This document shows, in pieces, positions 15,144 to 38,224 of a DNA stretch of 64,000 nucleotides. Each line of letters starts with the position of its first letter. The first letter of the stretch is position 1. The notes beneath the pieces are model-generated. The model did not search any database. It was not told the origin of the DNA and saw only the letters and a program-made list of their open reading frames with translations. The position numbers were made by a program, and so were the translations under genes. Origin of the DNA: an uncultured Gemmatimonadaceae bacterium (GTDB taxonomy: Bacteria > Gemmatimonadota > Gemmatimonadetes > Gemmatimonadales > Gemmatimonadaceae); NCBI GenBank assembly GCA_963740355.1, contig CAVUDW010000003.1:352001-416000 (forward strand), written 5' to 3'.

Positions 15144-15144
15144 G

Positions 15145-15963: not shown

Positions 15964-16161
15964 GTGACAAGTCGGGTGGGGAGAATCGGCGACAGAGGCA
16001 TCACGAACTGGCACGACGTCGACGGCGCGAGCCATCGGGTCGCCTACAACAGACTCTTCCGTATCGGGTGCGCCGATCCGCGCCACTCGGTCGCGGTCGT
16101 CGCCCTCACGGCCTGCAATCAATTGTACCTTTCGCGCCGACGATACCACCTGAGGCTGCCA

Positions 16162-16776
16162 ATGAACCGGAAGTTGCACTGGGAGACGGTGTACGAAACC
16201 AAGGCATCGTCAGACGTCAGCTGGTTTCAGGCAGTCCCGACGCGCTCCCTCGAGCTGATTGCCGCAACCGGGACCACACCGAGCACTGCGATCATCGACA
16301 TCGGTGGCGGCGACTCTTCCCTGGTCGACGCCTTGCTGCAGCTTGGCCACCAACGGGTGACGGTCCTCGATCTCTCCCTTGCGGCGCTCGAGCGTGCACA
16401 GCTGCGACTCGGTGCTCGGGCGGCAGACGTGACCTGGATCGAGGCCGACATCACTCAGGCCGAGCTCCCCGCCGCATTCTACGACGTCTGGCATGACCGC
16501 GCGGTGTTTCACTTTCTGACGGCAGCGGAGGACCGGCAGCGCTACGTCCAGACGGCCGCCGAGGCGATTCGCCCGGGCGGCACGATGATCATCGGGACCT
16601 TCGCGCTGGATGGACCGCTGCGCTGCAGTGGCCTCGAGGTGGCCCGGTACGACCCTGAGACGCTCGCGGCCGAGTTTGCGCCCGCCTTCGATCTCGCCCG
16701 TGGGTTTGCCGATGTGCACACGACACCGTGGGGCGCGGAGCAGCGGTTCACGTTTGTGGTGCTGGTGCGCCGATAG
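16162..16776 (+). CDS. Class I SAM-dependent methyltransferase (TPMT-like)
   Basis: HWETVY, IIDIGGGDS, YDVWHDRAVFHFL, CSGL. Start at ATG 16162. Confidence 0.92.
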   Translation: MNRKLHWETVYETKASSDVSWFQAVPTRSLELIAATGTTPSTAIIDIGGGDSSLVDALLQLGHQRVTVLDLSLAALERAQLRLGARAADVTWIEADITQAELPAAFYDVWHDRAVFHFLTAAEDRQRYVQTAAEAIRPGGTMIIGTFALDGPLRCSGLEVARYDPETLAAEFAPAFDLARGFADVHTTPWGAEQRFTFVVLVRR

Positions 16777-16816
16777 CGCCGCCGCCGCCCATGTCGTCGG
16801 CGCGACATCCGGAAAT

Positions 16817-16979
16817 CCGGTGACAGTGCACGATTTCGAAATCCGGTGACAGTGCACGGTTTAACCGGACAAAAACCGGTGACAGTGCACAGTTTCGAAA
16901 TCCGGTGACAGTGCACGGTTTCGAAATCCGGTGACAGTGCACGGTTTCCCCGTTTTCGAATTGTGTGCACTGTCACCGG
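16817..16979. repeat. Tandem cluster of the REP-like 15-mer CCGGTGACAGTGCAC: five direct copies and one inverted copy
   Basis: Direct copies at 16817, 16843, 16876, 16902, 16928 (periods 26/33/26/26); inverted copy at 16965-16979; degenerate GTCACCGGTTTGGGC tail to about 17006. Confidence 0.95.
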
Positions 16980-17027
16980 TTTGGGCGTCACCGGTTTGGG
17001 CACCGGCGCCCATGCAGCTCCTTGCGG

Positions 17028-17585
17028 CTACACACGAAGCACTGCCGCCGCCCACTCCGTCGGTTCGACATCGGCCGCCAGCACCCGGTCGACGGCAACG
17101 ATCACGCGGTCCTGCTGCAGGCGAAGTGCAAAACGATCGAGGTCGGGGGTGCGCCGACCGCTCGCGCGACGCCCATCCGTCATGAAGCGCACCTTGTGCT
17201 TGGGACAGTAGAAGCGATTCTCGGCTGGCGTCCACTCCAGCAGCCGCCCCTTGTGGGGGCACTCGAGCGAAAAGGCGAACAGCTGGCGGCTGGTCCGAAC
17301 CAGGCAGACGCGGTTCTCGACGTCCACCCAGACGCCGTCGACTGCCGGCAAGGCGTACGACCGCTCGATCTTGTCGACGGCAAGGGCAGTCACCTCTCCA
17401 ACGCCCGACGCGAATGCGCGCGTCGAGATCAGGCCGCCGGCAAGCAGCGCGGCCCCGATCGCTGTCGCTGCATCCCGCACGAAGCGGCGACGGTCAACAA
17501 CGGCCGGGCAGCCGGCATGGCTGGTATCGCTGGCATCGCTGGGCAATGCCGTCAGCGATCGCATGGTGTGCAGAGACTCCGACAT
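17028..17585 (-). CDS. Tat-exported Rieske [2Fe-2S] protein
   Basis: Twin-arginine DRRRFV; CPH and CPKH ligand boxes; RBS AGGAG before ATG 17585. Confidence 0.9.
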   Translation of the reverse strand: MSESLHTMRSLTALPSDASDTSHAGCPAVVDRRRFVRDAATAIGAALLAGGLISTRAFASGVGEVTALAVDKIERSYALPAVDGVWVDVENRVCLVRTSRQLFAFSLECPHKGRLLEWTPAENRFYCPKHKVRFMTDGRRASGRRTPDLDRFALRLQQDRVIVAVDRVLAADVEPTEWAAAVLRV

Positions 17586-17665
17586 GACGAATGCTCCTGA
17601 TGAATGTTGGGAGGTGCTGGCCGTACTCAGGCTCACATTCGGCTCCCCACACCCACGCCACCATC

Positions 17666-17677
17666 CGACATTCGTCG
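17666..17677. promoter_or_regulatory. Candidate LuxR-type box (CGAC-N4-GTCG) upstream of the Rieske gene
   Basis: Minus-strand CGACGAATGTCGGAT is 13/15 identical to CGACAGATGTCGGAT at 18368. Confidence 0.5.
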
Positions 17678-17729
17678 CGACTCAGTCGATCAGAACACTT
17701 GTGAGTCCTGACCGGCGGGCCGATCTCCC

Positions 17730-18281
17730 CTATTCGTCGACGCTTTGAGCGGGAGGCAGCATCAAACCTCCAAGAAAAAAGGCGGCCAGCTCGGCCCTCC
17801 CCTGCTGTCCGGACTTGCCGTAGACCGTCACCGCGTGCTGTCGGACGGTGCTCTCGCTTCGATTCGTCTGCGCGGCGATCTGCTTGTGACCGTGGCCCTT
17901 GAGCAGCAGAAGCGCGACTTCTCGCTCGCTGGGCGTCAGCCCCCAGTCGTCGAACTGTTCGTCGATCGCGCTGGCGAGGCCCGCGAGCGCCCGTTCGGCC
18001 CGACGTTGCCATGCCATCTGATCGGCCTGGGCCGCGGATAGCGAGCGTTTCGTTGCCTGAAGCGCCTCGGCTGTCGTTCGCCAGGCGCGCCAGAGCAGGA
18101 AGCCGACGCTGGCGCTGACCAGCATGATCCCCACCTCGACCAGCACATGGGCCGAGAGCCATTGGTCCGGCGCATCCAGATAGAGGTCGAACGCACCGGC
18201 CGCGACGACAGCCGCCAGGACGGCGAGCACCGCACGCCGCAACCACAGGTCGTCCTCGAACTCTTCACGCGGGAGTGTCAT
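17730..18281 (-). CDS. Membrane-anchored LuxR-type HTH regulator
   Basis: Two N-terminal TM helices, then WGLTPSEREVALLLLKG..KQIA..SESTVRQH..VYGK. Confidence 0.9.
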   Translation of the reverse strand: MTLPREEFEDDLWLRRAVLAVLAAVVAAGAFDLYLDAPDQWLSAHVLVEVGIMLVSASVGFLLWRAWRTTAEALQATKRSLSAAQADQMAWQRRAERALAGLASAIDEQFDDWGLTPSEREVALLLLKGHGHKQIAAQTNRSESTVRQHAVTVYGKSGQQGRAELAAFFLGGLMLPPAQSVDE

Positions 18282-18367
18282 GAGGGTGAAACGTGCACGC
18301 TTCCGACCGCTGCGGTACCCCAGCACCAGGCGCTGGGGCTTCACATACGTGCAGAAAGCGGCAACCA

Positions 18368-18379
18368 CGACAGATGTCG
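18368..18379. promoter_or_regulatory. Candidate LuxR-type box (CGACA-GA-TGTCG) in a divergent promoter
   Basis: Palindrome between the LuxR gene and the DUF2231 gene; matches the 17666 site. Confidence 0.5.
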
Positions 18380-18461
18380 GATAGGCGGTAAGCCCCGCGG
18401 ATGCGAAGGTGTGGGTGTGCTTCGGGAGCGTCCCGAGAGCACTTCACCCCTGGAGGCATTC

Positions 18462-19022
18462 ATGAACGGCTCATTTGCGGCACTACTGCCCACGCCGCTG
18501 CACCCTGCCATCGTGCATCTCCCGATGGCCCTCGCAGTCCTCGTCCCGATCTTCGCCGTGGCCGCACTGGTGGCGGTTCGGAGGGGGGCGCGACCGATTC
18601 GTGCGTGGAGCATTACCGTGGCGATGTTTGCGGCGCTCACGCTGAGCAGTTGGGTCTCCGTGGAAACCGGCGAAGATCAGGAAGACCGGGTCGAGTCGAC
18701 GGTTCCGCGCGCCGCATTCCATGCGCATGAGGACGCTGCCTCACTCTTCCTCTGGATGTCGGCTGGCGTGCTAGGCATCGCCGGCATCGGGTTGTTGGCA
18801 TCACGGGCTGGATCGACGGCGAGGTGGGTGGCGACTGCTGGATCAGCCGCACTGCTCGTGGCAGGGTACCGCGTTGGGCATACGGGCGGCGCGATGGTTT
18901 ACACCTACGGTGCGGCGAGCGCCTACACTGACAGCGCGGCGGTGGCGGCTGGCAACGCCGCCACGACGTCTTCTGGACGTGCGCGTGCGAGTGGCGACGC
19001 CGACGACGACGACAATCGGTAG
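18462..19022 (+). CDS. DUF2231-like membrane protein
   Basis: RBS GGAGG; PLHPAIVHLPMAL, HAHE, GHTGGAMVY; four TM segments. Confidence 0.8.
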   Translation: MNGSFAALLPTPLHPAIVHLPMALAVLVPIFAVAALVAVRRGARPIRAWSITVAMFAALTLSSWVSVETGEDQEDRVESTVPRAAFHAHEDAASLFLWMSAGVLGIAGIGLLASRAGSTARWVATAGSAALLVAGYRVGHTGGAMVYTYGAASAYTDSAAVAAGNAATTSSGRARASGDADDDDNR

Positions 19023-19200
19023 CGAGCGGCTCGAGCGGCTCGAGCGAGGTACCGTCACGCGCTCATGAAATATCGTGGATGTTTCAACTGTCGAGGTGCC
19101 GCGAGCACGCAACATGCACTGACGATTCATCGCTGCCCTGTCGCTGCGTCACCGTGTCGCGCGCTGACGGGCAGCCTGGATCACGATCAACGGAGGTTTC

Positions 19201-19716
19201 ATGCACATGACTTCATGGCGCACACTGCAGGCATCGGCACTCATCTTGGCTGTCGGCTCGCTCGCTGCCTGCGCTGGCAAGACTGCGGAGAAGGCCAGCG
19301 ACTCTGCCGCGACTGCGGCGCCGGTCACGGCTGAGCCATCGGCGGCCGCATCGAAGATGGAGTGGACGACGACGCTGGAGCCGCGAGGCGGTACGAATGT
19401 GCGCGGCACTGCGTCAGTCGCGGCAGGGGCGACCTCCGGCACTACGACGGCGGCGGTGTCCATCACTGGCGCGCCGAAGGGTGGGACGCACCCGTGGCAC
19501 GTGCATGTCGGGACATGCGCCGCCAGCGGGGCAATCGTCGGAGCGGCTGACGCCTACACACCGCTGAAGGCTGACGACAATGGCGCGGCCAATTCCAGTG
19601 CTACGCTCAATGTCGCGACGCCGACCACCGGCGAGTATCACGTGAACGTGCACCTGTCACCGACCGAGATGGGTACCATCGTGTCGTGCGGCGACCTGAA
19701 GATGGCTGGGATGTAA
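19201..19716 (+). CDS. Lipoprotein with a Cu/Zn-SOD-like (His-rich) domain
   Basis: RBS GGAGG; lipobox LAAC; HPWHVHVGTC, YHVNVH, IVSCGDL. Confidence 0.75.
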   Translation: MHMTSWRTLQASALILAVGSLAACAGKTAEKASDSAATAAPVTAEPSAAASKMEWTTTLEPRGGTNVRGTASVAAGATSGTTTAAVSITGAPKGGTHPWHVHVGTCAASGAIVGAADAYTPLKADDNGAANSSATLNVATPTTGEYHVNVHLSPTEMGTIVSCGDLKMAGM

Positions 19717-19741
19717 GCACCGGCTACGAGGCTGAACGTGC

Positions 19742-19782
19742 GGGGTCGGTGCCTTATGTTTGGGGCACCGGCCCCTTTGTTT
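19742..19782 (+). terminator. Rho-independent terminator
   Basis: GGGGTCGGTGCC..GGCACCGGCCCC stem followed by TTTGTTT, 25 nt after the stop at 19716. Confidence 0.7.
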
Positions 19783-19929
19783 GACCCGCGCCAACGAGGG
19801 GTGGCTCTTCCAGGAACGCTCGCCCGCACCGTCGGGCGGTTGTCCCTGGCCCACATCGCATCCCTGCGCGCCGACATGGCACCTCAGGTCACGCCTTTCA
19901 TCACAACGACGGCTGTGCGTGACGACGGC

Positions 19930-20667
19930 ATGTCGCTGCGCACCAGCTACGATGAATTTCGCGCGCGCGAGATCGATTTTTACAAGGAAATCATTCCGCA
20001 TCAGCAACTGATGCGCCTCGCCGACAGCGCGCTCCAGAGCATGGAGGCGCGGGGCGAGCTCATGCTCGGCGATGTGATGCTGAAATACGAAGTCGACGAC
20101 ATCGTCGCCGCTCGCCTTCGCCTGCCCTCCTTCCGCGCCTGGACACGCCGTCAGTCAGGCGGGGGCGGTGTGCTCCGCCCCTGGTCAGACCGCGCCGACC
20201 AACTGGCTCTCGAACTACCCACTGTTGCATCGAGTGCGGTCGTCCTGCTGCTGCAGCCACGCTCCGCAGATCTCTGGCAGGCCCTGAGCGGACATCGGCA
20301 TCATACGCTGGTCGTGGAACCAGACGACGAGCGTCGAGCGCGGCTGCTGGATGACGCCCACCGCGTCGACGGCGGTGAATACGTGACGGCCCTCCCCGCC
20401 TACGACGCGATCGATCCCGAGACGCTGTTTTCCTCGGTCTGCTATTCGCCGGCCGCCTGCGCCGATCTTGCAGACTGGGAAGCCGAGGAGCTGATCGAGT
20501 CGCTCAAGCAGCGGACGGTGCGGGGTGGCTGGCATGTGGTGGATGGCCTTTTGCGCGACCGCGCCTCGGTCCCACGCTCGATGCTCAAGCGGAGTTATGC
20601 CACCTGGGTGAAGCAAAAGCGGCGCGGCGCCGGCGACAGCACCTTCGTCGCAGCGCACTCAGGCTGA
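19930..20667 (+). CDS. Hypothetical protein, possibly with a degenerate SAM-methyltransferase-like C-terminal domain
   Basis: Helical N-terminus (SLRTSYDEF..RLRLPSFRAW); C-terminal 'LIESLKQRTVRGGWHVV'. Start uncertain (19876 or 19930). Confidence 0.6.
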   Translation: MSLRTSYDEFRAREIDFYKEIIPHQQLMRLADSALQSMEARGELMLGDVMLKYEVDDIVAARLRLPSFRAWTRRQSGGGGVLRPWSDRADQLALELPTVASSAVVLLLQPRSADLWQALSGHRHHTLVVEPDDERRARLLDDAHRVDGGEYVTALPAYDAIDPETLFSSVCYSPAACADLADWEAEELIESLKQRTVRGGWHVVDGLLRDRASVPRSMLKRSYATWVKQKRRGAGDSTFVAAHSG

Positions 20668-20712
20668 TCGGAACACACCGCCATGCGCTACCACCGGCGG
20701 GACGCCATCAAT

Positions 20713-20755
20713 CCGGTGACAGTGCACTCATTTCCGAAATCCGGTGACAGTGCAC
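20713..20755 (+). repeat. Two direct REP-like 15-mers
   Basis: CCGGTGACAGTGCAC at 20713 and 20741, each followed by TCA; between convergent genes. Confidence 0.95.
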
Positions 20756-20783
20756 TCAATGCAAAGCTGCTGCGCCGAGACGT

Positions 20784-21218
20784 CTATGTGCTGGCTGGTT
20801 CAGCGCGGATCAGCGTCCCGCGCAGCTCCGTACCCGGCGAGACAGTGTTGAAGACCGTGCCGTACTTCTGAACGTTTGCGTGCAGCAGGGCCAGCCGCTG
20901 CTCTGATTCGTCGGTGTCGACACGCAGCTCATAAGTGATCGACTCGAGGCGAGGCGGAACGTCCTGACGTACCGCAGTGATTGTGACCGAGACGCCTCGC
21001 AGCGCAAAGTGCAGCATCGGCGCGATGCGCTCGATACCCTTTAGCATGCACGCCGCCAGCGCAGCGAGCAGCAACTCGGCGGGATTGAACGCATCCATCC
21101 GGCCAGCGAGGTCGGTGTCGAGTGTCAGCGTCGCATTCTTGCAGGATGCCGTGCTGCCGTGAGCATCGTCACGATGCGCGGAGACGCGGTACTCCAGTGG
21201 CGGCTTTGCATCTGTCAT
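20784..21218 (-). CDS. OsmC family protein
   Basis: FNPAELLLAALAAC, KYGTVFNTV; ATG 21218. Confidence 0.9.
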   Translation of the reverse strand: MTDAKPPLEYRVSAHRDDAHGSTASCKNATLTLDTDLAGRMDAFNPAELLLAALAACMLKGIERIAPMLHFALRGVSVTITAVRQDVPPRLESITYELRVDTDESEQRLALLHANVQKYGTVFNTVSPGTELRGTLIRAEPAST

Positions 21219-21286
21219 GCGCGAGTTCCTCCCGAGGCGGTGGACGTGATCGAAAGATAGCCTCTGAGCACCGTCCCCGACCCAAT

Positions 21287-21301
21287 CCGGTGACAGTGCA
21301 C
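21287..21301 (+). repeat. REP-like 15-mer (direct)
   Basis: Exact CCGGTGACAGTGCAC between the marR and osmC genes. Confidence 0.95.
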
Positions 21302-21405
21302 ACAATGGCTATCCACCGCGCCGCGGAGTGGATTCAGGCGTACCCGGCCGGCTGGCCGCTCCCCGCCACTCTGCACCCGAATTCACGCGCGCTCCGTCAG
21401 CCGAA

Positions 21406-21933
21406 TCAGTCGACAGCCACCCCGTGGATGCCGACATGGGCAACGACACCCTTGAGCGTCGCGAGCAGCTGCGCTCGAGCCTCCGCATCGAGGTGCCCGA
21501 ATGCCTGGTCATCGTTGTCGTCGGCGAGCGCGGCGAGTATCGGTACGAGACGTCTGCCCGAGGCCCGCAGCACGATCAGCTGCGCGCGACCGTCCTCCGG
21601 ATCACTGCGGACCGACACCAGTTCCTTGGCGAACAGGCGATCGATGAGCTTCGATATCGCGCCGCGCGTCAGCCCAAGCCTTGCCGCCAGCTCACTCGGC
21701 TTGATGCCATCGCCGTCGAACAAGGCGCGCAACACGACCCACTCCGCGACCGTCACGCCCTGCTGCTCGACCTTCGTCTTGAAGGCGTGCGAGGCATGGT
21801 TCGAGACGACCCTCAGCCAGTAGCCGAGATGTGATTCGAGCGCGCTGACCCCATTTCGGTCCGGCGTCCGCTGGATGGGGCCGGCCTCGCGAACCGCCGC
21901 GAGCACCGAGCTATTGCGGGAAATGTTCGACAT
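21406..21933 (-). CDS. MarR family regulator
   Basis: HLGYWLR..VTVAEWVVLRAL..PSELAARLGLTRGAISKLIDRL..DGRAQ. Start uncertain (21933 ATG or 21906 GTG). Confidence 0.88.
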   Translation of the reverse strand: MSNISRNSSVLAAVREAGPIQRTPDRNGVSALESHLGYWLRVVSNHASHAFKTKVEQQGVTVAEWVVLRALFDGDGIKPSELAARLGLTRGAISKLIDRLFAKELVSVRSDPEDGRAQLIVLRASGRRLVPILAALADDNDDQAFGHLDAEARAQLLATLKGVVAHVGIHGVAVD

Positions 21934-22312
21934 GTGTTTCCGCAGTCCGACCAAAGTAGACGACGCGTTTCCCAAGGAACGAGACCATGTACCCCGCACA
22001 CCCTGCCGCCCGCACCTTCGTGTTGAATCCCGCATAGGAGTAGCCGGGTGCGTTGGTTTGCGCCTCACGCACCGCCTCCTGGATCGCAGTGACGTCGAAG
22101 GTGGCGGCGATCGGTCTCGCCGGTGTCGGCATCGCCAGTTGGACGCTGTCGCCGCTCGCACTGAAGTACGTGGCGGTCCCGCGACGATAGTCCACGTCAT
22201 ACCCCTCGAAGCCGGCGCTGATTAGCGTGCCGACGATCGCAGGAAAGGTCATCGGGCCGCCGTAGGCCGCATCGAGGCACCTCTGCGCGACCGCGGTCAG
22301 ATCCTCGGGCAT
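21911..22312 (-). CDS. DUF1398 family protein
   Basis: RBS GGGGAGG; MTFPAIVGTL..GFEGYDVDYR, AGCAGYMVSFLGKRVVYFGRTAETHVEHFP. Confidence 0.85.
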   Translation of the reverse strand: MPEDLTAVAQRCLDAAYGGPMTFPAIVGTLISAGFEGYDVDYRRGTATYFSASGDSVQLAMPTPARPIAATFDVTAIQEAVREAQTNAPGYSYAGFNTKVRAAGCAGYMVSFLGKRVVYFGRTAETHVEHFPQ

Positions 22313-22409
22313 CTCAGCTCGTCCTCCCCAGTGTGTGACTATTCGCGTTTCGAACCGACAACCCAAATATAGTTGCCTAGTCACTCATGTGAAGGCCTTG
22401 TCGTTGAAA

Positions 22410-22465
22410 TCCGGTGACAGTGCACTCATTGCGTAATTCGGTGACACAACCCGGTGACAGTGCAC
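22410..22465 (+). repeat. Left REP-like cluster flanking the transposase (two full direct copies and one partial)
   Basis: Copies at 22411 and 22451, partial CGGTGACA at about 22439. The transposase stop codon (22466-22468) abuts the second copy. Confidence 0.95.
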
Positions 22466-23140
22466 TCATTCGCCGACCGGCGCGCGAAGCGGCCTGCGCC
22501 CCGGCCTCCCGGGCCGCAAGCGACGCCTCGTCTGCGACTCCAACTGCGCCACGAACTCGGCCGACCCCGCCGGCCGACCGATCGTTTCACCGGCGCGGAT
22601 CCGTCGCAGGCGATCCTCATCGCCTGCCTCGCCCAGGTACGCCCGCATGTCGTCAATTCGCGCACGCATCAGATCGGGCTCCGTAAGGCCGTCGCCTGTG
22701 TGCGCCAGATAGGCGCGGGCGCTCGACCATCGCCACGCCAATGCCGTCCGTACGAGATTCGCGCGCACGGGATTGAGCAGGACGTACCGCAGCGCCTCGT
22801 AGAGATGCGGATCATCCATCGGTACCGACCCGTAACGCCCCTGCCAGAAGTGTCCCGTGACACCTCGGCTGCTGTTGAGGCAGCCGGCGTACGTGCGATG
22901 CACGGCGGACAGTGTGCGCCGCAACCCATCCTCGCACGCAGGCACGAGGATCAGGTGCGCGTGATTGGGCATGAGGCAATACGCGAGGCAGCGCACACGC
23001 GCCTCGGAACACGCCTCGCAGAGGAGGCGCAGGTACAGCGCGTAGTCTCCCGCTGAGAAGAACACCTGCTGCCGCCCATTGCCACGTTGCGTGACGTGAT
23101 GGGCGACACCGGGGATGACGAGGCGGGCAAGGCGAGCCAT
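22466..23140 (-). mobile_element. HUH/Y1 tyrosine transposase (RAYT / TnpA-REP-like, IS200/IS605 superfamily), no tnpB
   Basis: MARLAR..HHVTQRGN, YCLMPNHAHL (HUH), GHFWQGRY, LRYVLLNPVRA (catalytic Tyr), WRWSS; flanked by inverted repeat clusters. Confidence 0.93.
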
Positions 23141-23230
23141 ATGACGTATGGTGTGGGCACGAAACGCCGCCTTGCGGCAGCACGTGGCACCATCCTAAGA
23201 CGACTCGCCGCCCGCGACCTACCCAATTCT

Positions 23231-23275
23231 GTGCACTGTCACCGGTTTACACGCAATGAGTGCACTGTCACCGGA
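23231..23275 (-). repeat. Right REP-like cluster flanking the transposase (two inverted copies)
   Basis: GTGCACTGTCACCGG at 23231 and 23260; 23251-23275 is the exact reverse complement of 22410-22434 (25 bp). Confidence 0.95.
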
Positions 23276-23276
23276 A

Positions 23277-23762
23277 TTAGGGCTTCCGTGGCGCGGGGGC
23301 CGGTGCCGGCGCGCTGCCCGACGTGCGACCAGTGTTCGGCGAGGTGCCGGCGTTAGGCTTCGGCAACGGCTTGCCCGTGATCGGACGTTCGACACCCTGC
23401 ACCGTCCGTCGCTCGACTTCGAGATCGTCGAGATCATCGTCACCACCTGCGCGCGCCGTGCCGCCGCCGGTATTCGGCGAGACGCCGGCACCTGATTTCA
23501 CCGGCGGCCTGCCGGAGGTCGTCGGTGTGTTGACGCCCTGTACCGTGCGCTTCGTGCCAACATAGATGTCGTCCTCCGTCTGCGTGCCCGGGCCAGTCGT
23601 GGCGCGCGTGTTCACCGGCGGTTTGGTGGTCGGCGCATTCGGGGTGATGGTCTTGGGCGCCGTCTTGGGAGTCGGTGCCGGTGGCGCCGACTGCGCGAAG
23701 ACCGAGGCACTCGTCAGCATGACGGCGCAGACGACGGCGGACAGGCGACTGAAGCGTTGCAT
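23277..23762 (-). CDS. Exported Pro/Thr/Gly-rich protein with an internal duplication
   Basis: RBS GAGGAG; signal peptide (SVFA-Q); two DD..RTVQGV..G.P..K..AG.SPNTG units. Confidence 0.75.
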   Translation of the reverse strand: MQRFSRLSAVVCAVMLTSASVFAQSAPPAPTPKTAPKTITPNAPTTKPPVNTRATTGPGTQTEDDIYVGTKRTVQGVNTPTTSGRPPVKSGAGVSPNTGGGTARAGGDDDLDDLEVERRTVQGVERPITGKPLPKPNAGTSPNTGRTSGSAPAPAPAPRKP

Positions 23763-23829
23763 TTGTCACTCCTCGAAGAATTTGGGACAGCGTTGAGACT
23801 GACAGATCGTGACGCGAGAGACTCGCGTC

Positions 23830-25227
23830 TTATCGCACACGAACCATGTGCAGCGTGATCCCCGCACCCGGTTCGTCCAGCACCAGGTTGAGCACCCGCC
23901 CGCCGCGGATGCCTTCGAACGACGCGTGAAACCGACGCGTCCGCCCCTGAAAATTGTTGCCGAACGCGATCGTCCAGTTGTCGACCACGGAGAAATTCCC
24001 CCGGTACGACACGTTCTGGCTGCGGATGCTGCCGACCATTCCAGTCGCACTGGCCACATCCATCTGATACGATGCGCCGGTGAACGACACGGTGGTGTTG
24101 CCACCGGCGTACATCATCCCTGCCGCACGGCCCGTCGCCGCATACACCATGCTCGTGCCCGAAGCGAAATTGTCGCTCCACGTACCGACGAAATCCCTCG
24201 GCGACACCGCGAACCTGTTGCGTCCGGCCATCGCGACCCATCGATCCCATGCCGTCTCGTTCTGCCGGTACGGCCCGAACTCTCGCTCGAACGTCGCCTT
24301 GTCTGGCGTCGCGAACTCCATCCAGTGTGTGTTCCTGTTCGGGTGACTGAACAGCACGACGTACATCCTGCGACCGGTCTCGATGTCGGTGGCCGTTCCC
24401 GCCGCGTAGTTGATCGGTTCGTAGCCGCCAGGGTTATTCCGCTCGACAACGAAGTCCGTCAGGTCACGGTACCGCGGCGCCACCAGCAGATTCCAGAACA
24501 GCGTCGTCTGCTCGGCAAGCACGGACATGTACGCCTTCTCTTCTTCGCGCGCGTAGTGCAGCACCACCCGCAGGTCTCCCTTCGTGACCTTCGTGTAGCT
24601 CTCCCCGATGACACTCGTCCACCCGTCGTCGAAATTCGTCGTGCTGAAGGCAAAGGCGCCCGGCGCAGTTTCCGCCGAGGCAGCGTTCTCCGTGACAGGC
24701 GCAGGCGTACTCGCCACCGCTGGCGGGGTTGCAGGAACGTTCGCGCCCGCTGCCGCTGGCTCGACCGCGGCAACGGCCGTCACCGGCCCCGATGGAGTCG
24801 CTGCTGCTGCGACCGTGACCGAGCGCTGCGAGATCTCGGCAGTGTAGAGCCAGCGATCCTTCTTGCCCGTCACGAACGACAGCAGCACGGACGATGCTCC
24901 GTCCTTGTCGGCGATGCCTGTCGTCGAGTCACGCGCACTCATCGTGACGGTCCAGCCGGAGCGCTGCACCGACGCGATGATCTCCGTCGTGGGTGGCGCG
25001 CTGAGTGAGAGCCGAAACACCTCGAGACGAGGACCGAGCTTCACTCCCTCACGCACCGCATCGAGCTTCAGAGACTCGCGGGCTGTTGCACGGTAGAGAA
25101 AGTTCGCGCTCACCGACGTGCCGTCGGGCAATCCCGTCCCGAGTAATGCCGACGTCACCGATGCGGCAGCCTGCGCGAAGCAGACGGCTGGGACCAGCAG
25201 CATTGCGAGGCCTGCACTGAACTTCAC
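23830..25227 (-). CDS. Exported two-domain hypothetical protein
   Basis: RBS AGGAG before GTG 25227; signal-like N-terminus; Pro/Ala linker; beta-rich C-terminal domain. Confidence 0.7.
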   Translation of the reverse strand: MKFSAGLAMLLVPAVCFAQAAASVTSALLGTGLPDGTSVSANFLYRATARESLKLDAVREGVKLGPRLEVFRLSLSAPPTTEIIASVQRSGWTVTMSARDSTTGIADKDGASSVLLSFVTGKKDRWLYTAEISQRSVTVAAAATPSGPVTAVAAVEPAAAGANVPATPPAVASTPAPVTENAASAETAPGAFAFSTTNFDDGWTSVIGESYTKVTKGDLRVVLHYAREEEKAYMSVLAEQTTLFWNLLVAPRYRDLTDFVVERNNPGGYEPINYAAGTATDIETGRRMYVVLFSHPNRNTHWMEFATPDKATFEREFGPYRQNETAWDRWVAMAGRNRFAVSPRDFVGTWSDNFASGTSMVYAATGRAAGMMYAGGNTTVSFTGASYQMDVASATGMVGSIRSQNVSYRGNFSVVDNWTIAFGNNFQGRTRRFHASFEGIRGGRVLNLVLDEPGAGITLHMVRVR

Positions 25228-25366
25228 GCCTTGACTCCTGCAAATGGTGATCGACCCGCATCCTCGGGCGTGCCACAAGATCTTCCAACATCTGGCGTAT
25301 TTCTGCGGGTTGCACGCACCCGCAACCGCGAGGTGCACTGGTAGCGTGCCCCGTTCAGTCATCGCT

Positions 25367-27748
25367 TCAGTAGGGCATCCACATGAATGCGTTCGCAAGT
25401 CCGGTGAAGGCCACGAACATTCCCGAAGCACGAGCGCCTGGGTCGTATTGATTGTTCGAACCGAACGCCACGTACGCACCGGTCCGCGAGATCGACACGC
25501 CGCTTGGTGAGTTGTTGGTCATCGTCGTCACGGGACGCGTTTCCCCGGTGATGTTGTTGTGCATGAAGATGTTGCCTTCAGGTGCGCCGAGGTTCTTCGC
25601 GGCGGACGCGAAGGCCACCCACTCGCCGCTCGAAGAAAGTGCGAGTCGGCCACCCTGCTCGACCGGCGAATCACCATTCGCCTCGGCGCCAGACGAGGTG
25701 ACACTGGCCCGCTGCACACGCCCGCTGCGCAGGTCCACGACGAACACATCCTGCAGTCCATTTGCATCGCCCGGCACGAGATTCGTCGCCGTGGTGGCAA
25801 ACGCGACGACGTTGCCATCGCCTGAGATCGCCGGCGCGACTTCGCGGCTCGCACTTTCGTTGCCCTGGTTACGCTCTCCACCCGCAGAGGTCCGACTGAC
25901 GCGTGAGAGGCCGCCCGTACTCTGATCGAAGACGAAGATGTCCCAGAGGCCATTCCTGTCACCGGTGACGAGGTCGGCGGAGAAACTCTGGAATGCGATC
26001 CGCGCGCCGTCCTCGGAGATGGACGGCTTCGAGCCACCCACTGCGCTGCCTTTGACACCGCGTGTCACGAGTGTCGTCTGCTTGGCTTGCAGGTCGCGCC
26101 GATAGACGTTCGGCGTGCTGACGCCAACCACGCCAGGCGTGAGATTGCTCGCGCTGCTGGTGAACGCGACCACGCGACCATCGCCCGATACCGTGGGTTC
26201 GTACGAGTCCGCGTTCCCCTCGACGCCGCCACTGCCGATGCTGATTCGGGTGACTGAAGTGGGGAGCAAGCCATTGGCGGCGGACCACACGAACACATCA
26301 CGCACCTTGTTGCCGTCACCCGGCACGAGGTTGGTGGCATGCGACTCGAAGGCCACTGTCAGGCCGTCAGCTGAAATCGACGGAGCGAAGCTGTCAGCGT
26401 CACCCGGTGTGCCATCGGCGGCGGCGCTGAGCAACTGCGTGTTGCCGGTGAGGCGGTCGCGCCAGTAGACCTGCCGCGCCTTCACCGGCCGATCGACCAG
26501 CCCACTCGCACCCGACATGAACGCCACGAATCGCCCCTCGCCGAAGCCGGCGAACGTGCTCCCTACCGGATCAGCAGCCCCGCCGACGACCGCATCCTTG
26601 CTCTCGTAGAACGTCGCACGCACGGTGCCGGCTGAATTCGTGCTGATGTGTTCGAACCGCGTCTCACAGCCCACGCGCAGACCGGGCTGTCCCTGCGGCA
26701 TGATGCCGATCGCACCTTGGTATGCCACACAGGTCACGTTGCTCCCGACTGGTGTCGCGGTGACGGTGTACGGCGTGCCATTTGCTCGCGGAGGCGCAAA
26801 GGTGAAGCTCTGCTCGTTGTAGCGATCAGTTCCACCGATGAAGACTGGCACCGTGACGGTCAGCGGCACGCCGCTGCCATTCACCGTCAAGGCCGCGCGT
26901 GCACCGACTGGTCCACGCAGGATGCCGCCGAGCGGGGAGGTGCCGCCCGCTCGCGGCCCGATGGTGACCGGGAGTCGCGTACGCGGCGGGATCAGCGTGC
27001 CTGAGCCACGGCCGCCAGTCGGCGCTGTTCCAGGCCCGGGTTCGGCGCCCGCTCCGACCACAGGCGGTGGCGCGGCGGCGGTGCAATTCGCTGTGACATA
27101 GATGTCTGAGTAGGCGCGGATGACGAGCGTGTCACCGACCGACTTCACCGCCCACGGCTCGGCAGCGGTGATGGGACAGGTTCGCCCCGCCGGGCTGCCG
27201 GCGCGCCAGACTCGCACCGTGCTGGCCGCGTCGATCATGCGAGTGAACCCGCCCTGGCGAGTTGGCGCGGTCACGTCGATCGGATCGGCGCCATCCATGC
27301 CGAAGCGGACAGTTTCGCCGTCGGCCGTGCCAAACGCGCGCACGATCACGCTAAACGTCGAGGGCACGTCCTTGCAGTCGGCGAATACGACCAGCGAGCT
27401 GCCAGTGGCGGTCCCGGTCTGGTTGGACAATCGGCAGGTGCGTGGGCCGGCGGTCTGCGTCACGGAATACGCCATCCCGCGCGGGACGGGCTGCGCGAAC
27501 GACTTCGGGTTTTCGTAAGTCAGCCCCGTCCACGACCCCGCGGCGTACACCACCTGCTGGCTGCCAAGTGTGAACGTGAACGCATCGTCCATCGAGCGGC
27601 CAGCGACGAGCACGGAGATCGTGGTGCCGGCGAGGGTCTGGGTTGCACCGTTCCGGGGCGGGAGGGTCTGCTGTGCCCTCAGGAGGAGGGGCATGGCGGC
27701 GACGAGCGTCGCCCCCGAACAGGCCAGCGCACGGAAGGATCGAGTCAT
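25367..27748 (-). CDS. Exported protein with TolB-like/PD40 beta-propeller and Ig-like repeats
   Basis: Signal peptide; repeated PSISADG..VAF.S.A.NLVPGD.N..RDVFV blades. Confidence 0.88.
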   Translation of the reverse strand: MTRSFRALACSGATLVAAMPLLLRAQQTLPPRNGATQTLAGTTISVLVAGRSMDDAFTFTLGSQQVVYAAGSWTGLTYENPKSFAQPVPRGMAYSVTQTAGPRTCRLSNQTGTATGSSLVVFADCKDVPSTFSVIVRAFGTADGETVRFGMDGADPIDVTAPTRQGGFTRMIDAASTVRVWRAGSPAGRTCPITAAEPWAVKSVGDTLVIRAYSDIYVTANCTAAAPPPVVGAGAEPGPGTAPTGGRGSGTLIPPRTRLPVTIGPRAGGTSPLGGILRGPVGARAALTVNGSGVPLTVTVPVFIGGTDRYNEQSFTFAPPRANGTPYTVTATPVGSNVTCVAYQGAIGIMPQGQPGLRVGCETRFEHISTNSAGTVRATFYESKDAVVGGAADPVGSTFAGFGEGRFVAFMSGASGLVDRPVKARQVYWRDRLTGNTQLLSAAADGTPGDADSFAPSISADGLTVAFESHATNLVPGDGNKVRDVFVWSAANGLLPTSVTRISIGSGGVEGNADSYEPTVSGDGRVVAFTSSASNLTPGVVGVSTPNVYRRDLQAKQTTLVTRGVKGSAVGGSKPSISEDGARIAFQSFSADLVTGDRNGLWDIFVFDQSTGGLSRVSRTSAGGERNQGNESASREVAPAISGDGNVVAFATTATNLVPGDANGLQDVFVVDLRSGRVQRASVTSSGAEANGDSPVEQGGRLALSSSGEWVAFASAAKNLGAPEGNIFMHNNITGETRPVTTMTNNSPSGVSISRTGAYVAFGSNNQYDPGARASGMFVAFTGLANAFMWMPY

Positions 27749-27919
27749 GACGTGGTAGCGGAGATGGGAGACATCCACCAACGTCAGACGTCAGGGTCCG
27801 GCAAACATTCTCAGCCGTCGGGCGGGCGGCGTTCCGAGGCGTGCCGCGTCCCGGCGACGCGCAGGGCGATCGCACGTCGCCGGGCGGTTGCGAATGGCGA
27901 GATCCCGGACGTTGAATCA

Positions 27920-27933
27920 GTGCACTGTCACCG
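27920..27933 (-). repeat. REP-like repeat (inverted, 14/15 match)
   Basis: GTGCACTGTCACCG(A), 30 nt past the stop codon at 27964. Confidence 0.9.
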
Positions 27934-27963
27934 AATTCCCGGACTTCCGGCAGTGAGATAGCG

Positions 27964-28614
27964 TCAGTTGCCGCGCGTGGGATTGACCGATCGCGTGGCG
28001 CACGGAACGACACTGTAGAAGAGACGATAGGTGCTCATCGACGCCGTCTCACGGTCGGCGTATGGCTCCGGCGGCCAGGGCACGACGTAGTTCGAAGCGG
28101 CGGCGAGATCCACGACAGAGCTCACCTGAAATGTGCTCTTGGCCGTGGTCGCGCAGGCGCTTTCGAGCGGCGCGGCGCTCGAGGCGCGATCGACGGTCAG
28201 CGCGGCGAACGTCATCGTGCCCCCGTTGGCCACGCTGCCGCCAGCGGTGGGTGTGCCGTTGTCGATCGCAATGTTCGACTCGATCAGGACGCCGGATGAC
28301 GCGCCGTTCAATCGCAACGGCGCCATCTGCGCGATCGCCATACGATTCGCATTCCCGTTGCCACCGCCCACCACCAGCTTGTAGCCCGTCTGCATCGTGA
28401 CCGTGAAGCGGATGTTGCAACGCACCCGACCGCGATTGATCGGGATCGGGAACTGTCCCGCCGCCGCCCAATCCGCAGCGAGAAACCTGCCCGACGCATC
28501 CGCCGCCTGGCTGAACGAGGTGCCGGTACAGTCGCCGGACGCGCTGCCGGCGGTGATCGAGAGCGACTGCGCCGCAGCGACCGAGGGCACCGACGCGAAC
28601 AACAGGGCGAACAT
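27964..28614 (-). CDS. Exported Cys-containing beta-rich hypothetical protein
   Basis: Signal 'MFALLFASVPSVAAA-QS'; four Cys in the mature part. Start uncertain. Confidence 0.65.
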   Translation of the reverse strand: MFALLFASVPSVAAAQSLSITAGSASGDCTGTSFSQAADASGRFLAADWAAAGQFPIPINRGRVRCNIRFTVTMQTGYKLVVGGGNGNANRMAIAQMAPLRLNGASSGVLIESNIAIDNGTPTAGGSVANGGTMTFAALTVDRASSAAPLESACATTAKSTFQVSSVVDLAAASNYVVPWPPEPYADRETASMSTYRLFYSVVPCATRSVNPTRGN

Positions 28615-28810
28615 GACACCTGGACGGAACACGACGGCCTCCGATGGATTTCCGAGGGGGCACAGGCCGCGTTGGGGAAGCCAGGTCGCGCGCAGGTGCC
28701 GCTCTCGGGGACACAGGGAGGACTGGTGCACGGCAACTGGGCAACATGCCTTGCCAGGGCGATACTTCCCGACTCAACGGATGCCAGACAGCCCAATTCC
28801 GATGACAAAT

Positions 28811-28900
28811 CCGGTGACAGTGCACTCATTGCAGGCCAATGCCCGTGCGCCTTCGCCGCGCCGTGATCGTCCTGAGGGGATATCTGTGCACTGTCACCGG
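28811..28900. repeat. Inverted REP doublet (REPIN-like)
   Basis: Direct copy 28811-28825 and inverted copy 28886-28900 with a 60-nt spacer. Confidence 0.93.
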
Positions 28901-28908
28901 ATTTACTG

Positions 28909-30459
28909 ATGCCTGCCACATCCTCCCCTCTCCTCCGCTCGCTCGCCGCCGCACTGCTTCTCTCCGCGTGTGGGGGAGATCCCGCGCCGGCGCCGCTACG
29001 ACTCGCAGTGGACCCGGCATTCTGCGCACAGGTCCAGGCCCCTGCCCCGGCGCTGTCCACCGTCCTCGCACCGCTCGATTCGCTGATGCGCGTGCACACC
29101 GGCGTGCACTCGCTCGAGGAAGGTGACCAGTCGATGGTCGCGCGTGCCTGGCTGACCGCCGCGGCCGAGCGCAGCATCGACGTGCAGTACTTCATCTTCA
29201 CGGGCGACAACGTCGGCTTGATCGCGGTGGACTACCTGCTCCGTGCAGCCGACCGCGGAGTGCACGTTCGGTTGCTGGTGGACGACTTCATGCTCGAGGC
29301 GGATGCTCGGTCATTGCTGGCACTGGATGCCCACCCGAACCTCGAGATCCGTCTCTACAATCCGACGACGAACATCGGGAAGACGCTGCCGACGAAGCTC
29401 TTTTCGCTGGCCACCGATTTCCGCGGCTTCAACCAGCGGATGCACAACAAGACGTTCATCGTGGATGGACGAGTCGTGATCACCGGCGGACGCAATATCG
29501 CCGACGAATACTTCGACTACGACCACGAATACAACTTTCGTGACCGGGATGTCCTGCTGCTGGGTGGTGCCGCAGGCGATGTGCAGCGCTCGTTCGAGAC
29601 GTTCTGGTCGAGCGCACTGAGTGTCCCGGTGGCCTCGCTGGTGCGCGCTGATACTGCGCCGATGGACACGGCCGTCGCGTACCGCTACCTGCATGACTAC
29701 GCCTGCGATCCACATAACTTCTGGCCACAGGTGCGCGAACGCATTGCGGCGGCGCCGGCCACCTTCGACCGCCTGCGTGATTCGGGGGCGGTCGTATGGT
29801 CGGACAGCGTCAGCTTCGTGACGGACCTGCCCGGCAAGAACGCCGGGACCGATGGAATCGGCGGCGGAGGGCGAAGCACCGAGGCACTGATCCAGTTGGT
29901 GAAGGAGGCGCGTTCATCGGTGACCATCCAGTCGCCGTATCTGGTCACGACTGCGGTGAGCCAGCAGCTGTTCCGCGATGCCATTGCGCGCGGCGTGCGC
30001 GTGCGAATCCTCACCAACAGCCTCGCCTCGACCGACAATCTCGACGCCTTCAGCGGCTATCAGCGCGAGCGCGCAACGTTGCTTGCACTCGGCGTCGAGA
30101 TCTACGAGTTCAGGCCCGATGCGGCGGTGCGTCGCCGAATCATGACGGGCGCGCTGCAGACGACCCTCGACTACGCACCGATCTTCGGCCTGCATGCGAA
30201 GTCGATGGTGATCGACGACAGGATCGCGGTGATCGGCACCTTCAACCTCGATCCCCGGAGCGCGAACCTGAACACCGAGTGCCTGGCGGTGGTGCGCGAT
30301 GCGCAGGTGGCGAAGGATCTCGCGCGTGCGATGGCGGTGGACATGCAGCCGGAGAATGCCTGGCACACGACGGCCGCGTTCAATCCGGATGGGGAGGTCG
30401 CGCTGGGGAAGCGGCTGAAGGTCTGGCTGCGGGGGGCGGTGCCGAAGGCGGTGTTGTAG
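28909..30459 (+). CDS. Phospholipase D family lipoprotein (ClsC/YmdC-like)
   Basis: Lipobox LSAC; two HKD motifs, HNKTFIVD and HAKSMVID; FNLDPRSANLNTE. Confidence 0.93.
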   Translation: MPATSSPLLRSLAAALLLSACGGDPAPAPLRLAVDPAFCAQVQAPAPALSTVLAPLDSLMRVHTGVHSLEEGDQSMVARAWLTAAAERSIDVQYFIFTGDNVGLIAVDYLLRAADRGVHVRLLVDDFMLEADARSLLALDAHPNLEIRLYNPTTNIGKTLPTKLFSLATDFRGFNQRMHNKTFIVDGRVVITGGRNIADEYFDYDHEYNFRDRDVLLLGGAAGDVQRSFETFWSSALSVPVASLVRADTAPMDTAVAYRYLHDYACDPHNFWPQVRERIAAAPATFDRLRDSGAVVWSDSVSFVTDLPGKNAGTDGIGGGGRSTEALIQLVKEARSSVTIQSPYLVTTAVSQQLFRDAIARGVRVRILTNSLASTDNLDAFSGYQRERATLLALGVEIYEFRPDAAVRRRIMTGALQTTLDYAPIFGLHAKSMVIDDRIAVIGTFNLDPRSANLNTECLAVVRDAQVAKDLARAMAVDMQPENAWHTTAAFNPDGEVALGKRLKVWLRGAVPKAVL

Positions 30460-30465
30460 AGCGCG

Positions 30466-30637
30466 TCACGGCGGCGTCATCTCGTAGTTCGACGGTGGCT
30501 CAGCGCCGAGCAGGTTGCGGACGAAGTAGTCACAGCGTGGCGGATCGCGTATCGAACGCTGATGACCCGCATCCGTCACGATCAGCAGGTCGAAGTCCCG
30601 GTTCGCCTTCTGCATGGCGTCGGCCGAGACGCAGCGT
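30466..30637 (-). pseudogene. C-terminal remnant of an S9 (DPP-IV-like) peptidase
   Basis: Manual translation TLRL/ADAMQKANRDFDLLIVTDAGH...DYFVRNLLGAEPPSNY*, with a frameshift and no upstream body. Confidence 0.7.
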
Positions 30638-30659
30638 CTCAGCAAACCGCGCCTGACGG

Positions 30660-31391: not shown

Positions 31392-31443
31392 GATGCATTC
31401 CTCTCCGAAGTAGTTGAGACTCACATCAAACGACACGCCACCC

Positions 31444-35859: not shown

Positions 35860-35916
35860 CGCCGGAATTCAAGCGGCACTGTTGATTGGCAAGTCAGGTC
35901 ACCTGATCACGCGGGA

Positions 35917-38166: not shown

Positions 38167-38224
38167 GCGGCATGGCGGTGCGCATGCCGCCGGAGCGCGC
38201 ATCGTCCTGCTCGACGGCACCCCC

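Follow-up and report, generated by a model that had tools for sequence, protein, structure and literature searches.

A REP/RAYT system of probable TIRYT type in a variable island of an uncultured Gemmatimonadaceae bacterium

The DNA considered here is a stretch of 64,000 nucleotides from an uncultured Gemmatimonadaceae bacterium (G000:C3:352001-416000, where G000 is the stretch's own genome), which we call the window and to which all plain coordinates refer. At 16817-28900 it holds the gene of an HUH/Y1 protein, here named RAYT-1 (22466-23140), among many copies of a 15-mer, CCGGTGACAGTGCAC, whose family we call REP-1 (REP, repetitive extragenic palindromic); a second enzyme and repeat of the same genome are named RAYT-2 and REP-2. 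A first-pass annotation of this sequence had read the repeats as dividing the neighboring genes into cassette-like units that may have been acquired in the manner of an integron. We consider it probable that an ordinary REP/RAYT system, of the TIRYT ("TIRtron") type, makes up the locus and lies in an island of fast gene turnover, and that the apparent cassettes reflect punctuation and not capture.

TIRtrons and TIRYTs were defined by Di Nocera, De Gregorio and Rocco (2013; PMC3733652), who give GGGGWSAS as their motif, describe moderately abundant TIR families that occur as dimers or clusters, report two TIRYTs in S. maltophilia of which one has self-complementary repeats and one does not, and place REPs mostly downstream of coding regions, where they are plausibly transcribed. 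According to a classification of TnpA-Y1 proteins (Quentin et al. 2018; PMC6006769), subclass 2.1 consists of long proteins with a C-terminal extension, near whose genes that survey reports no REP-like structures; it probably corresponds to the TIRYTs, its flanking inverted repeats mostly carry GGGG[AT][CG]A[CG], and 291 of the 292 sequences that Bertels et al. (2017; PMC5581495) place in RAYT group 1 were assigned to it. For the flanking 16-mer the latter study counts, replicon-wide, about 12 copies in group 1, 57 in group 2, and 140 in group 3, and it reports group 1 RAYTs on plasmids together with hints of horizontal transfer. In P. fluorescens SBW25, higher-order REPIN clusters are described beside each RAYT (Bertels and Rainey 2011; PMC3116915). 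A group 1 TnpA-REP has been proposed to diversify neighboring prochlorosin genes (Laurenceau et al., bioRxiv 10.1101/2020.03.09.984088), and in a post-submission note those authors speak of no strong evidence for or against causation. A literature search on repetitive extragenic palindromic sequences in Gemmatimonadetes gave nothing relevant as judged by title or abstract.

RAYT-1 and the REP-1 repeat family

RAYT-1 is encoded on the minus strand, has a length of 224 aa, and matches the Pfam model Y1_Tnp (E 9.4e-8). RAYT-1 was aligned with 25 homologues, of which seven come from congeners, 17 represent other phyla, and one is the paralog encoded in the same genome; all 26 sequences share N59-H60-x-H62 and R118-Y119...N123-P124, and Y103 varies. 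The HUH motif reads N59-H60-A-H62 with hydrophobic residues after it, and Y119-V-L-L-N123-P124 matches the class 2 signature of Y1 proteins, Y---NP, as given in PMC6006769. When the single sequence was used to search the PDB no match was obtained; a profile made from the alignment gave E. coli TnpA-REP (4ER8) as its best solved structure (E 1.3e-9), the next one cited being the ISDra2 transposase (3.3e-5). The profile alignment sets H60 and H62 on H59 and H61 of 4ER8, Y119 on Y115, and N123 on N119, residues that PMC3479197 assigns to the active site of the E. coli enzyme, with Y115 as the catalytic tyrosine. RAYT-1 further has a C-terminal extension (224 aa compared with 165 aa for 4ER8) in which W138-S139-S140, G188-R189-P190, and E201 are kept across phyla. 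By tblastn the genome contains a single copy of RAYT-1 plus one paralog, of 32% identity, on contig C2; the closest named relative comes from a Gemmatimonadaceae metagenome-assembled genome (MAG; 79% identity over 140 residues on a short contig), and 576 relatives with 41-57% identity were confirmed across many phyla. Judged by sequence, RAYT-1 is a REP-associated HUH/Y1 protein with the 15-mer as its cognate repeat, in agreement with the first-pass annotation, and probably belongs to the TIRYT type, that is, to TnpA-REP subclass 2.1 and RAYT group 1. Its motifs suggest that it would cleave and rejoin the repeat as single-stranded DNA.

The window contains 16 exact copies of the 15-mer (none in 100 shuffles) and one copy with a single mismatch at 27920-27934. 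As first reported, 16 of these 17 copies fall within 16817-28900, the remaining one being at 49356, and their orientation turns over at the enzyme, with 10 of 11 copies forward on its left and five of six reverse on its right when the copy at 49356 is counted. Two inverted arms enclose the RAYT-1 gene. The left arm (22411-22465, plus strand) consists of two forward copies, the second of which abuts the stop codon, and the right arm (23231-23274, minus strand) consists of two reverse copies. Further to the left lie an array at 16817-16979 (five forward copies at 26-33 nt spacing and one reverse copy), two forward copies at 20713-20755 (plus) between the convergent genes 19738-20667 and OsmC, and a single forward copy at 21287-21301 (plus) between OsmC and MarR. 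To the right we find the single reverse copy with one mismatch (27920-27934, minus), a convergent, REPIN-like doublet with an unusually long spacer of 60 nt (28811-28900, between 27964-28731 and the PLD gene), and the isolated reverse copy at 49356-49370 (minus). Distances to stop codons are 0 nt (22451-22465 and the RAYT stop at 22466), 2 nt (23260-23274 and 23277), 28 nt (20741-20755 and 20784), and 29 nt (27920-27934 and 27964); the first three had been given correctly and the fourth as 30 nt. The longest open reading frame (ORF) of OsmC, 20784-21305, overlaps the copy at 21287, and the actual start is likely an internal methionine, as the Pfam domain begins at residue 71 and the ortholog in the congener G014 aligns from residue 26. 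If OsmC starts there, all copies are intergenic, as had been claimed.

Across the genome the repeat is both dispersed and clustered, the two outcomes between which the first-pass annotation had asked for a choice. G000 has 105 exact 15-mers and 119-121 copies of an 11-12-nt core, all of them on the two large contigs C2 and C3, and a 23-mer search returned 129 REP-1 copies within five mismatches compared with none for the reversed control. The conserved unit, of about 20-25 nt, reads aAATCCGGTGACAGTGCAC with a weak tcatt tail after it. Of the 50 tight sites into which the copies fall, 28 are convergent, that is, forward copies followed by reverse copies. Spacings between forward and reverse neighbors are 28-31 nt in 23 of 30 cases, and a reverse copy followed by a forward one occurs once. 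The commonest arrangement is the convergent doublet and the second is the one-directional tandem run with a period of 26-29 nt. Single units fold no better than shuffled sequences (z -0.5 and +0.7), whereas convergent doublets fold at -19 to -31 kcal/mol (z -5.5 to -6.9); because doublets fold and single units do not, the structured unit of REP-1 is a REPIN-like doublet. Two examples from the locus are the last forward copy and the reverse copy of the array at 16817-16979, which form a hairpin (fold of 16921-16986, -19.3 kcal/mol, z -5.5), and the doublet at 28811-28900, which lies in a divergent promoter gap (-31.1 kcal/mol, z -6.0).

Although 87% of the REP-1 copies are found elsewhere, spread over about 43 further sites, the locus is the densest 12.1 kb of the genome, with seven sites, or five when the enzyme's own arms are left aside. 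No other 12.1-kb stretch has five or more sites, and seven were reached in none of 5,000 uniform placements. Among the 15 gene gaps in 16179-28909, seven contain REP-1 and eight do not, compared with about 1% of intergenic sites genome-wide (50 sites). Other dense stretches lack a Y1 gene: 14 sites lie in C2:1.630-1.687 Mb, and at C2:1.9666-1.9732 Mb, at a great distance from any such gene, four sites (five repeat doublets) in 6.5 kb separate single genes that are, like those of the locus, accessory genes of mixed kind (photolyase, tannase, kinase, S9 peptidase, cytochrome c, DinB, and SDR). Closeness to a facing stop codon is likewise found genome-wide: crude gene calls put 19 of 49 sites within 30 nt of one and 26 within 60 nt. 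By the same crude calls, eight one-directional sites elsewhere in the genome have a stop at no more than 150 nt, and seven of them share the direction of the upstream gene. Such a tendency would account for the reverse orientation of the copies found right of the enzyme, among genes that all lie on the minus strand; the run of eight minus-strand genes from OsmC to 27964-28731 was confirmed from the ORFs. Separately, three small contigs, C1 (183 kb), C4 (100 kb), and C5 (29 kb), have no copy of either repeat family and a matching GC content (0.646-0.652); they may be plasmids or contigs of another genome binned in.

The second system of the same genome serves as an internal control. RAYT-2 (G000:C2:1530310-1530978; L029:6310-6978) is 32% identical to RAYT-1, and its flanks (L029:6044-6239 and 7202-7372) carry three or four forward and three reverse (inverted) copies of REP-2, a self-complementary repeat of 25-27 nt, GATCAAGGGGTCAGAGATCTTGATC, with the core GGGGTCAG, that is distinct from REP-1. 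REP-2 has 156 core copies at 43 sites genome-wide. Near RAYT-2 there are just the two flanking arrays, the next REP-2 site being 45 kb off. Given this unpartitioned neighborhood, adjacency to a RAYT alone does not yield surroundings partitioned by repeats.

Comparison with relatives (labeled G005, G008, G009, G010, G014, and G016 where they are named) suggests that enzyme and repeat have a shared history within the genus. The 15-mer, with at most one mismatch, is present in 17 of 18 congeners, and the other seven genera sampled are at the control level (0-2 copies). Counts range from 16 to 152 in the eight congeners in which a RAYT-1 ortholog was found and from 0 to 34 in the ten in which none was found, in a comparison of kin that are not independent and of fragmented assemblies that lose repeats. 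Eight of nine congener RAYT loci have a forward copy to the left of the gene and a reverse copy to its right, and the ninth is cut by a contig end. Across the genus the protein has diverged to 63-68% identity and the 15-mer has stayed the same to the letter, in keeping with long vertical co-residence. Two full-length RAYT-1-like copies, with 66% and 60% identity to the query, are present in G010; they are old paralogs and not recent duplicates. The local excess recurs, with five REP-1 sites within about 6 kb around the RAYT in G009 and five in 3.2 kb in G010. We also examined 31 distant RAYT loci with full 10-kb flanks and found inverted exact 13-mers in the flanks of 20 of them. A G/T-GACA core, either G[GT]GACAG or something close to it, is present in 19 of these 20, the arms having GGGGACAG; the remaining one, from an alphaproteobacterial MAG, has GGTGACAGTGCAT. 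Distant loci have 2-4 sites per 20 kb, and the window, with seven sites and 16 copies, is the maximum of the 33 loci compared.

The variable island that holds the locus

From left to right the locus consists of the HupE operon (minus), a methyltransferase (MTase) gene (plus), six REP-1 copies, block A, two copies, OsmC (minus), one copy, MarR (minus), 21911-22384 (minus), two copies, the RAYT-1 gene, two copies, three ORFs (minus), one copy, one ORF (minus), two copies, and the PLD gene (plus). Block A (17028-20667) contains Rieske and LuxR genes (both minus) followed by a DUF2231-like gene, the lipoprotein-like 19201-19716, and 19738-20667 (all plus); blocks B and C (20784-22384, minus) are OsmC and then MarR with a weakly DUF1398-like ORF; blocks D and E (23277-28731, minus) are three ORFs, one of them for a PD40 beta-propeller protein, and then one ORF. 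Pfam supports Rieske, LuxR/GerE, OsmC, MarR, PD40, and Y1_Tnp. Of the labels given earlier, those for Rieske, LuxR, OsmC, MarR, and the Y1 enzyme stand, the SOD-like label for 19201-19716 is unsupported, the DUF2231 match is slightly below the Pfam cutoff (24.1 compared with 26.4 bits), and the DUF1398 match is weak (E 0.003; 18.1 bits compared with a cutoff of 22). Signal-peptide-like N-termini, judged by eye, are present in 23277-23762, the PD40 protein, 27964-28731, and 19201-19716, and therefore in three of the four ORFs of blocks D and E. Pfam scans of the locus ORFs revealed no integrase family, Y1_Tnp being the sole recombinase-like gene, and no tnpB-type family in the ORFs neighboring RAYT-1. 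The GC content of the blocks (0.626-0.680; contig 0.650 +/- 0.022) gives no compositional sign of import, which is weak evidence either way.

The most informative relative is G009, which is collinear with the window on both sides of the locus (window 282-10950 with G009:C2:148.8-159.5 kb, and window 52043-63724 with G009:C2:174.8-185.1 kb). Between these flanks blastn and tblastn delimit a variable island, 10978-52042 in the window, whose length is 41 kb in G000 compared with 15.5 kb in G009 and in which RAYT-1 has the same relative position in both. The two islands have just four things in common, namely repeat arrays, the RAYT (64%), a three-gene block that has diverged, and gene 51192-51959, which in G009 lies on the opposite side of the RAYT. 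The G009 island contains a cupin gene, four repeats, ArsP, an ECF sigma factor and an anti-sigma factor, a pyridoxal phosphate (PLP) enzyme, two repeats, the RAYT, three repeats, and two small ORFs. No repeat was found at either edge of the island in either genome; those nearest to the right edge are 2.7 kb away in G000 and 0.75 kb away in G009, and none is near the left edge. The isolated copy at 49356 is still within the island, and the interval 30459-49356, with about 14 ORFs, has no REP-1 copy.

The flank shared with G009 also provides a direct case of repeat gain. At G009:C2:154100-154143 (L116:14100-14143) two REP-1 copies lie inside a still-open ORF of 893 aa in a collinear context, and the ortholog in G000 (5052-7679, 875 aa) has no repeat at the corresponding place (5437-5684). 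The pair is an in-frame intragenic insertion in a variable linker, and since the surroundings are otherwise collinear, a repeat was gained without gene movement.

Several side observations concern the same pair of genomes and the MTase region. The right-hand tract, 52043-63724 against G009:C2:174810-185068, has 89% DNA identity and proteins with 86-97% identity, compared with 72-75% for the left flank and 68% for the RAYT, which suggests a recent exchange between the G000 and G009 lineages; G000 has an extra 1.6-kb gene (53541-54989) inside it. We considered whether this tract might be a transferred block bounded by repeats and rejected this, as its ends lie 0.75-7.5 kb from the nearest repeats. 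In G009 the right-arm array (three reverse copies) at 173842-174062 is repeated with near-identical flanks and spacing at 189217-189454, 15 kb downstream and in direct orientation. The set of MTase, 13816-14448, HupE, and DUF4198 (13816-16776) is duplicated at G000:C3:536614-541767 with 65-82% protein identity; this second copy has neither repeats nor a RAYT, and the G010 RAYT sits in a locus of the second type. G010:C32, with an MTase gene, four repeats, and a RAYT, was considered as an "empty" form of the window's stretch from MTase to RAYT and rejected as a clean ortholog; its MTase is nearer to the repeat-free second MTase-HupE locus of G000 (C3:536-542 kb), at 75% compared with 63%. Two public runs (X1 and X2) gave short, low-depth contigs that break at repeats, and the one repeat-adjacent joint, 20765 to 23253, seen in one of these contigs (depth 2, shorter side 21 nt, five extra letters), fell below the guide to reliability that comes with the tool and was not used; stretches without coverage are uninformative.

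Gene order differs from that in other relatives as well, in comparisons in which many genes give no DNA match at the divergence between relatives. G016 is a positional ortholog in which the HupE operon and PLD are about 12 kb apart. Everything from the MTase gene through 27964-28731 is absent and unrelated genes, for TPR, kinase, amidohydrolase, and C39-like peptidase proteins, lie there instead, with no REP-1 in the 170 kb examined of this syntenic region and no RAYT. At least four further breakpoints against G016 within the window are in repeat-free gaps. Blocks D and E did not turn up in the syntenic region of either G016 or G009. In both G014 and G010, homologues of LuxR-DUF2231 (with Rieske in G014) are surrounded by orthologs of G000 C3:1.97-1.99 Mb, the G014 OsmC adjoins the ortholog of 51192-51959, and the homologue of 19201-19716 in G016 has yet another context; in the stretches of G014, G010, and G016 examined, no repeat was found near the homologues of Rieske/LuxR-DUF2231, OsmC, or 19201-19716. 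These block homologues are 50-76% identical compared with 78-87% for their neighbors and hence may be paralogs or imports and not orthologs that have moved. Finally, these relatives' regions map to 5-7 scattered places in G000, and genes are just as scrambled in a repeat-dense region that lies far from the enzyme. Gene order is thus fluid throughout the genus and cannot single out the RAYT-1 locus. An even genome-wide spread of the repeat together with conserved gene order or repeat-free breakpoints had been named in advance as evidence against gene capture; the outcome is mixed, as the repeat is genome-wide but uneven and gene order is unconserved here but unconserved elsewhere too.

Proposed repeat dispersal and its alternatives

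In the reading that we prefer, RAYT-1 would be a single-copy, domesticated HUH/Y1 single-stranded DNA nuclease-transferase between inverted arms of its cognate repeat. It would recognize the repeat of about 20-25 nt (AAATCCGGTGACAGTGCAC followed by the weak tcatt tail) and copy it to new intergenic places, mostly as convergent hairpin doublets of the REPIN-like kind, after which tandem runs may grow by slippage or unequal exchange. The enzyme would act preferentially near its own gene, where the surrounding DNA tolerates insertions. Copies would pile up near the gene, in gaps and usually just past stops, because the enzyme prefers nearby sites and the stretch tolerates change. The look of cassettes would then come from gene ends punctuated by repeats and not from genes captured; repeats between genes beside a RAYT are the normal look of such systems and no evidence of gene capture.

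Several findings weigh against this reading. G016, whose assembly is 94% complete in 10 contigs, keeps 34 copies, and no homologue of RAYT-1 or RAYT-2 was found in it with RAYT-1 as the query; persistence of REP-1 therefore does not need the enzyme. The match of RAYT-1 to the NCBIfam model REP_Tyr_transpos (NF047646) spans positions 3-146 of the 146 in the model and scores 60.7 bits, under the cutoff of 80, and the REP-1 core, GGTGACAG, is one base off the GGGGWSAS consensus published for TIRtrons. One-directional half-sites account for five of seven sites near the enzyme compared with 16 of 43 elsewhere, in small numbers; being forward on the left of the enzyme and reverse on the right, they would also fit arrays split by incoming DNA, and just three of them, besides RAYT-1's own arms, bear on the flip in orientation. 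Finally, the island genes of G000 and G009 differ almost completely while the RAYT and arrays are kept, and the excess of sites at the locus is extreme.

The explanation that survives best after local dispersal takes up these last points, and we regard it as unlikely. It holds that the arrays themselves drive gene turnover in the island, blocks entering or leaving by RAYT-catalyzed single-strand exchange or by homologous exchange between the 20-25-nt repeats, so that the inverted arms are broken up, into forward half-sites left of the enzyme and reverse ones right of it, and RAYT-1 with its arrays is the long-lived anchor of a plasticity island. The persistence of RAYT, arms, and large arrays amid replaced genes, the presence of repeats in seven of 15 locus gaps, the flip in half-site polarity at the enzyme, and the different contexts in which relatives have their homologues of blocks A and B and of 19201-19716 all speak for it, as do a two-gene insertion in L027 relative to G005 and G016, which has a doublet at one of its two boundaries, and the duplication of the G009 right-arm array 15 kb away. 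Other findings argue against it. The island edges are repeat-free in both genomes, as are the interval 30459-49356 and at least four breakpoints against G016; the junction between DUF2231 and 19201-19716 joins genes that have different contexts in relatives and has no repeat; block homologues elsewhere lack repeats; the 89%-identity tract does not end at repeats; the blocks show no compositional sign of import; and gene order is fluid everywhere, relatives' regions being spread over 5-7 places in G000. Were this explanation true, group 1 RAYTs/TIRYTs would have a part in the local turnover of genes, and G000 and G009, as a clean collinear pair with the enzyme at the same place and the island genes almost wholly replaced, are suited to that question.

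Less probable still, in our estimate, is that RAYT-1 and its two arms are a still mobile, insertion sequence-like unit (an active TIRtron) in an existing plasticity zone, with the nearby repeats as debris of local hops. The immediate neighbors of RAYT-1 do differ among G000, G009, G010, G014, and G008, G010 has its two full-length copies, and the plasmid-borne group 1 RAYTs with hints of horizontal transfer reported in PMC5581495 are compatible with such mobility. Against this, G000 has one copy, which lies where that of G009 does relative to the conserved outer flanks, those of G010 are old paralogs, and the 15-mer has been kept while the protein has diverged to 63-68% identity. Least probable of all is that the repeats owe their retention chiefly to a function for the host at the ends of genes, as transcript 3' hairpins, terminators, or protein-binding sites, with the partition marking ends of transcription units: the 26 of 49 sites within 60 nt of a facing stop, the strong hairpins of doublets, the seven of eight one-directional sites elsewhere that point as the upstream gene (by crude calls), and the location of REPs mostly downstream of coding regions according to PMC3733652 agree with it, but singlets do not fold, arrays of up to six copies and a doublet in the divergent promoter gap 28811-28900 are not terminator-like, and such a function would be no competitor to the dispersal mechanism and would merely add a reason for retention.

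Comparison with described systems

The likeness to integrons is one of appearance alone, consisting of short intergenic repeats, often past stops, and gene content that varies between relatives. RAYT-1 is an HUH/Y1 protein, and Pfam scans of the locus ORFs found no IntI tyrosine recombinase. The repeats had been compared with attC sites because of their placement; stop closeness is a genome-wide property of REP-1, and as single units do not fold they are unlike attC, and they occur as one to six copies per junction. The locus blocks are multigene, on both strands, and some have their own regulator (LuxR in A, MarR in C), block A alone comprising five genes on both strands. Partitioning, taken earlier as a sign of capture, also occurs at C2:1.9666-1.9732 Mb without a Y1 gene and does not occur around RAYT-2, and REP-1 lies at about 43 other sites genome-wide. 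Further points against the proposed capture are the repeat-free island edges, a repeat-free stretch of 20 kb in the interior, the eight of 15 gaps without a repeat, and the homologues of three blocks that are repeat-free in relatives. An integron-like reading thus fails every integron criterion tested, gains no specific support, and is not supported. From IS200/IS605 elements the locus differs in that RAYT-1 is a single copy, its arms are identical inverted repeats and not distinct subterminal hairpins, and its neighbors include no tnpB-type family.

The prochlorosin clusters, as described by Laurenceau et al., share the RAYT subgroup (group 1/subclass 2.1), but there many tnpA copies or fragments accompany one gene family, whereas here one enzyme has mutually unrelated neighbors. 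With E. coli TnpA-REP and its REP/BIME repeats (4ER8; PMC3479197), RAYT-1 has in common the aligned HUH, catalytic tyrosine, and alpha-D asparagine, and this is its best match to a solved structure by profile; in comparison with the published enzyme RAYT-1 is about 60 residues longer and the second alpha-D metal ligand, H123, is alanine. The REPIN-RAYT systems reported from Pseudomonas and Enterobacteria (groups 2 and 3; PMC3116915) resemble ours in a single-copy RAYT, a replicating unit like the convergent hairpin doublet, higher-order clusters beside the RAYT gene, extragenic repeats, and vertical inheritance within a genus. Relative to that description, REP-1 differs in that its single unit is not palindromic and has no GTAG head, RAYT-1 probably belongs to another RAYT group, and one-directional tandem runs with a period of 26-29 nt are common.

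The closest correspondence is with TIRtrons/TIRYTs as characterized in PMC3733652 and PMC6006769, in text that makes no mention of Gemmatimonadaceae. RAYT-1 is long, with a conserved C-terminal extension and Y---NP, its gene lies between inverted repeats, its arms are not themselves hairpins, and the arm sequence forms a moderately abundant family of singles, dimers, and groups. As is reported for S. maltophilia (PMC3733652), G000 has two systems, REP-2 being self-complementary and REP-1 not. As to the GGGGWSAS motif, REP-2 fits it with GGGGTCAG, distant homologues have GGGGACAG in their arms, and REP-1 with GGTGACAG is one base off. A further difference lies in number, REP-1 having about 120-150 copies, roughly tenfold above the mean of 12 given for flanking 16-mers in group 1 (PMC5581495). 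REP-1 is the arm sequence of a probable group 1 RAYT that has been amplified to this level in REPIN-like doublets and kept letter for letter across a Gemmatimonadaceae genus, and this amplification above the group average makes it a natural case for how these little-studied enzymes spread repeats.

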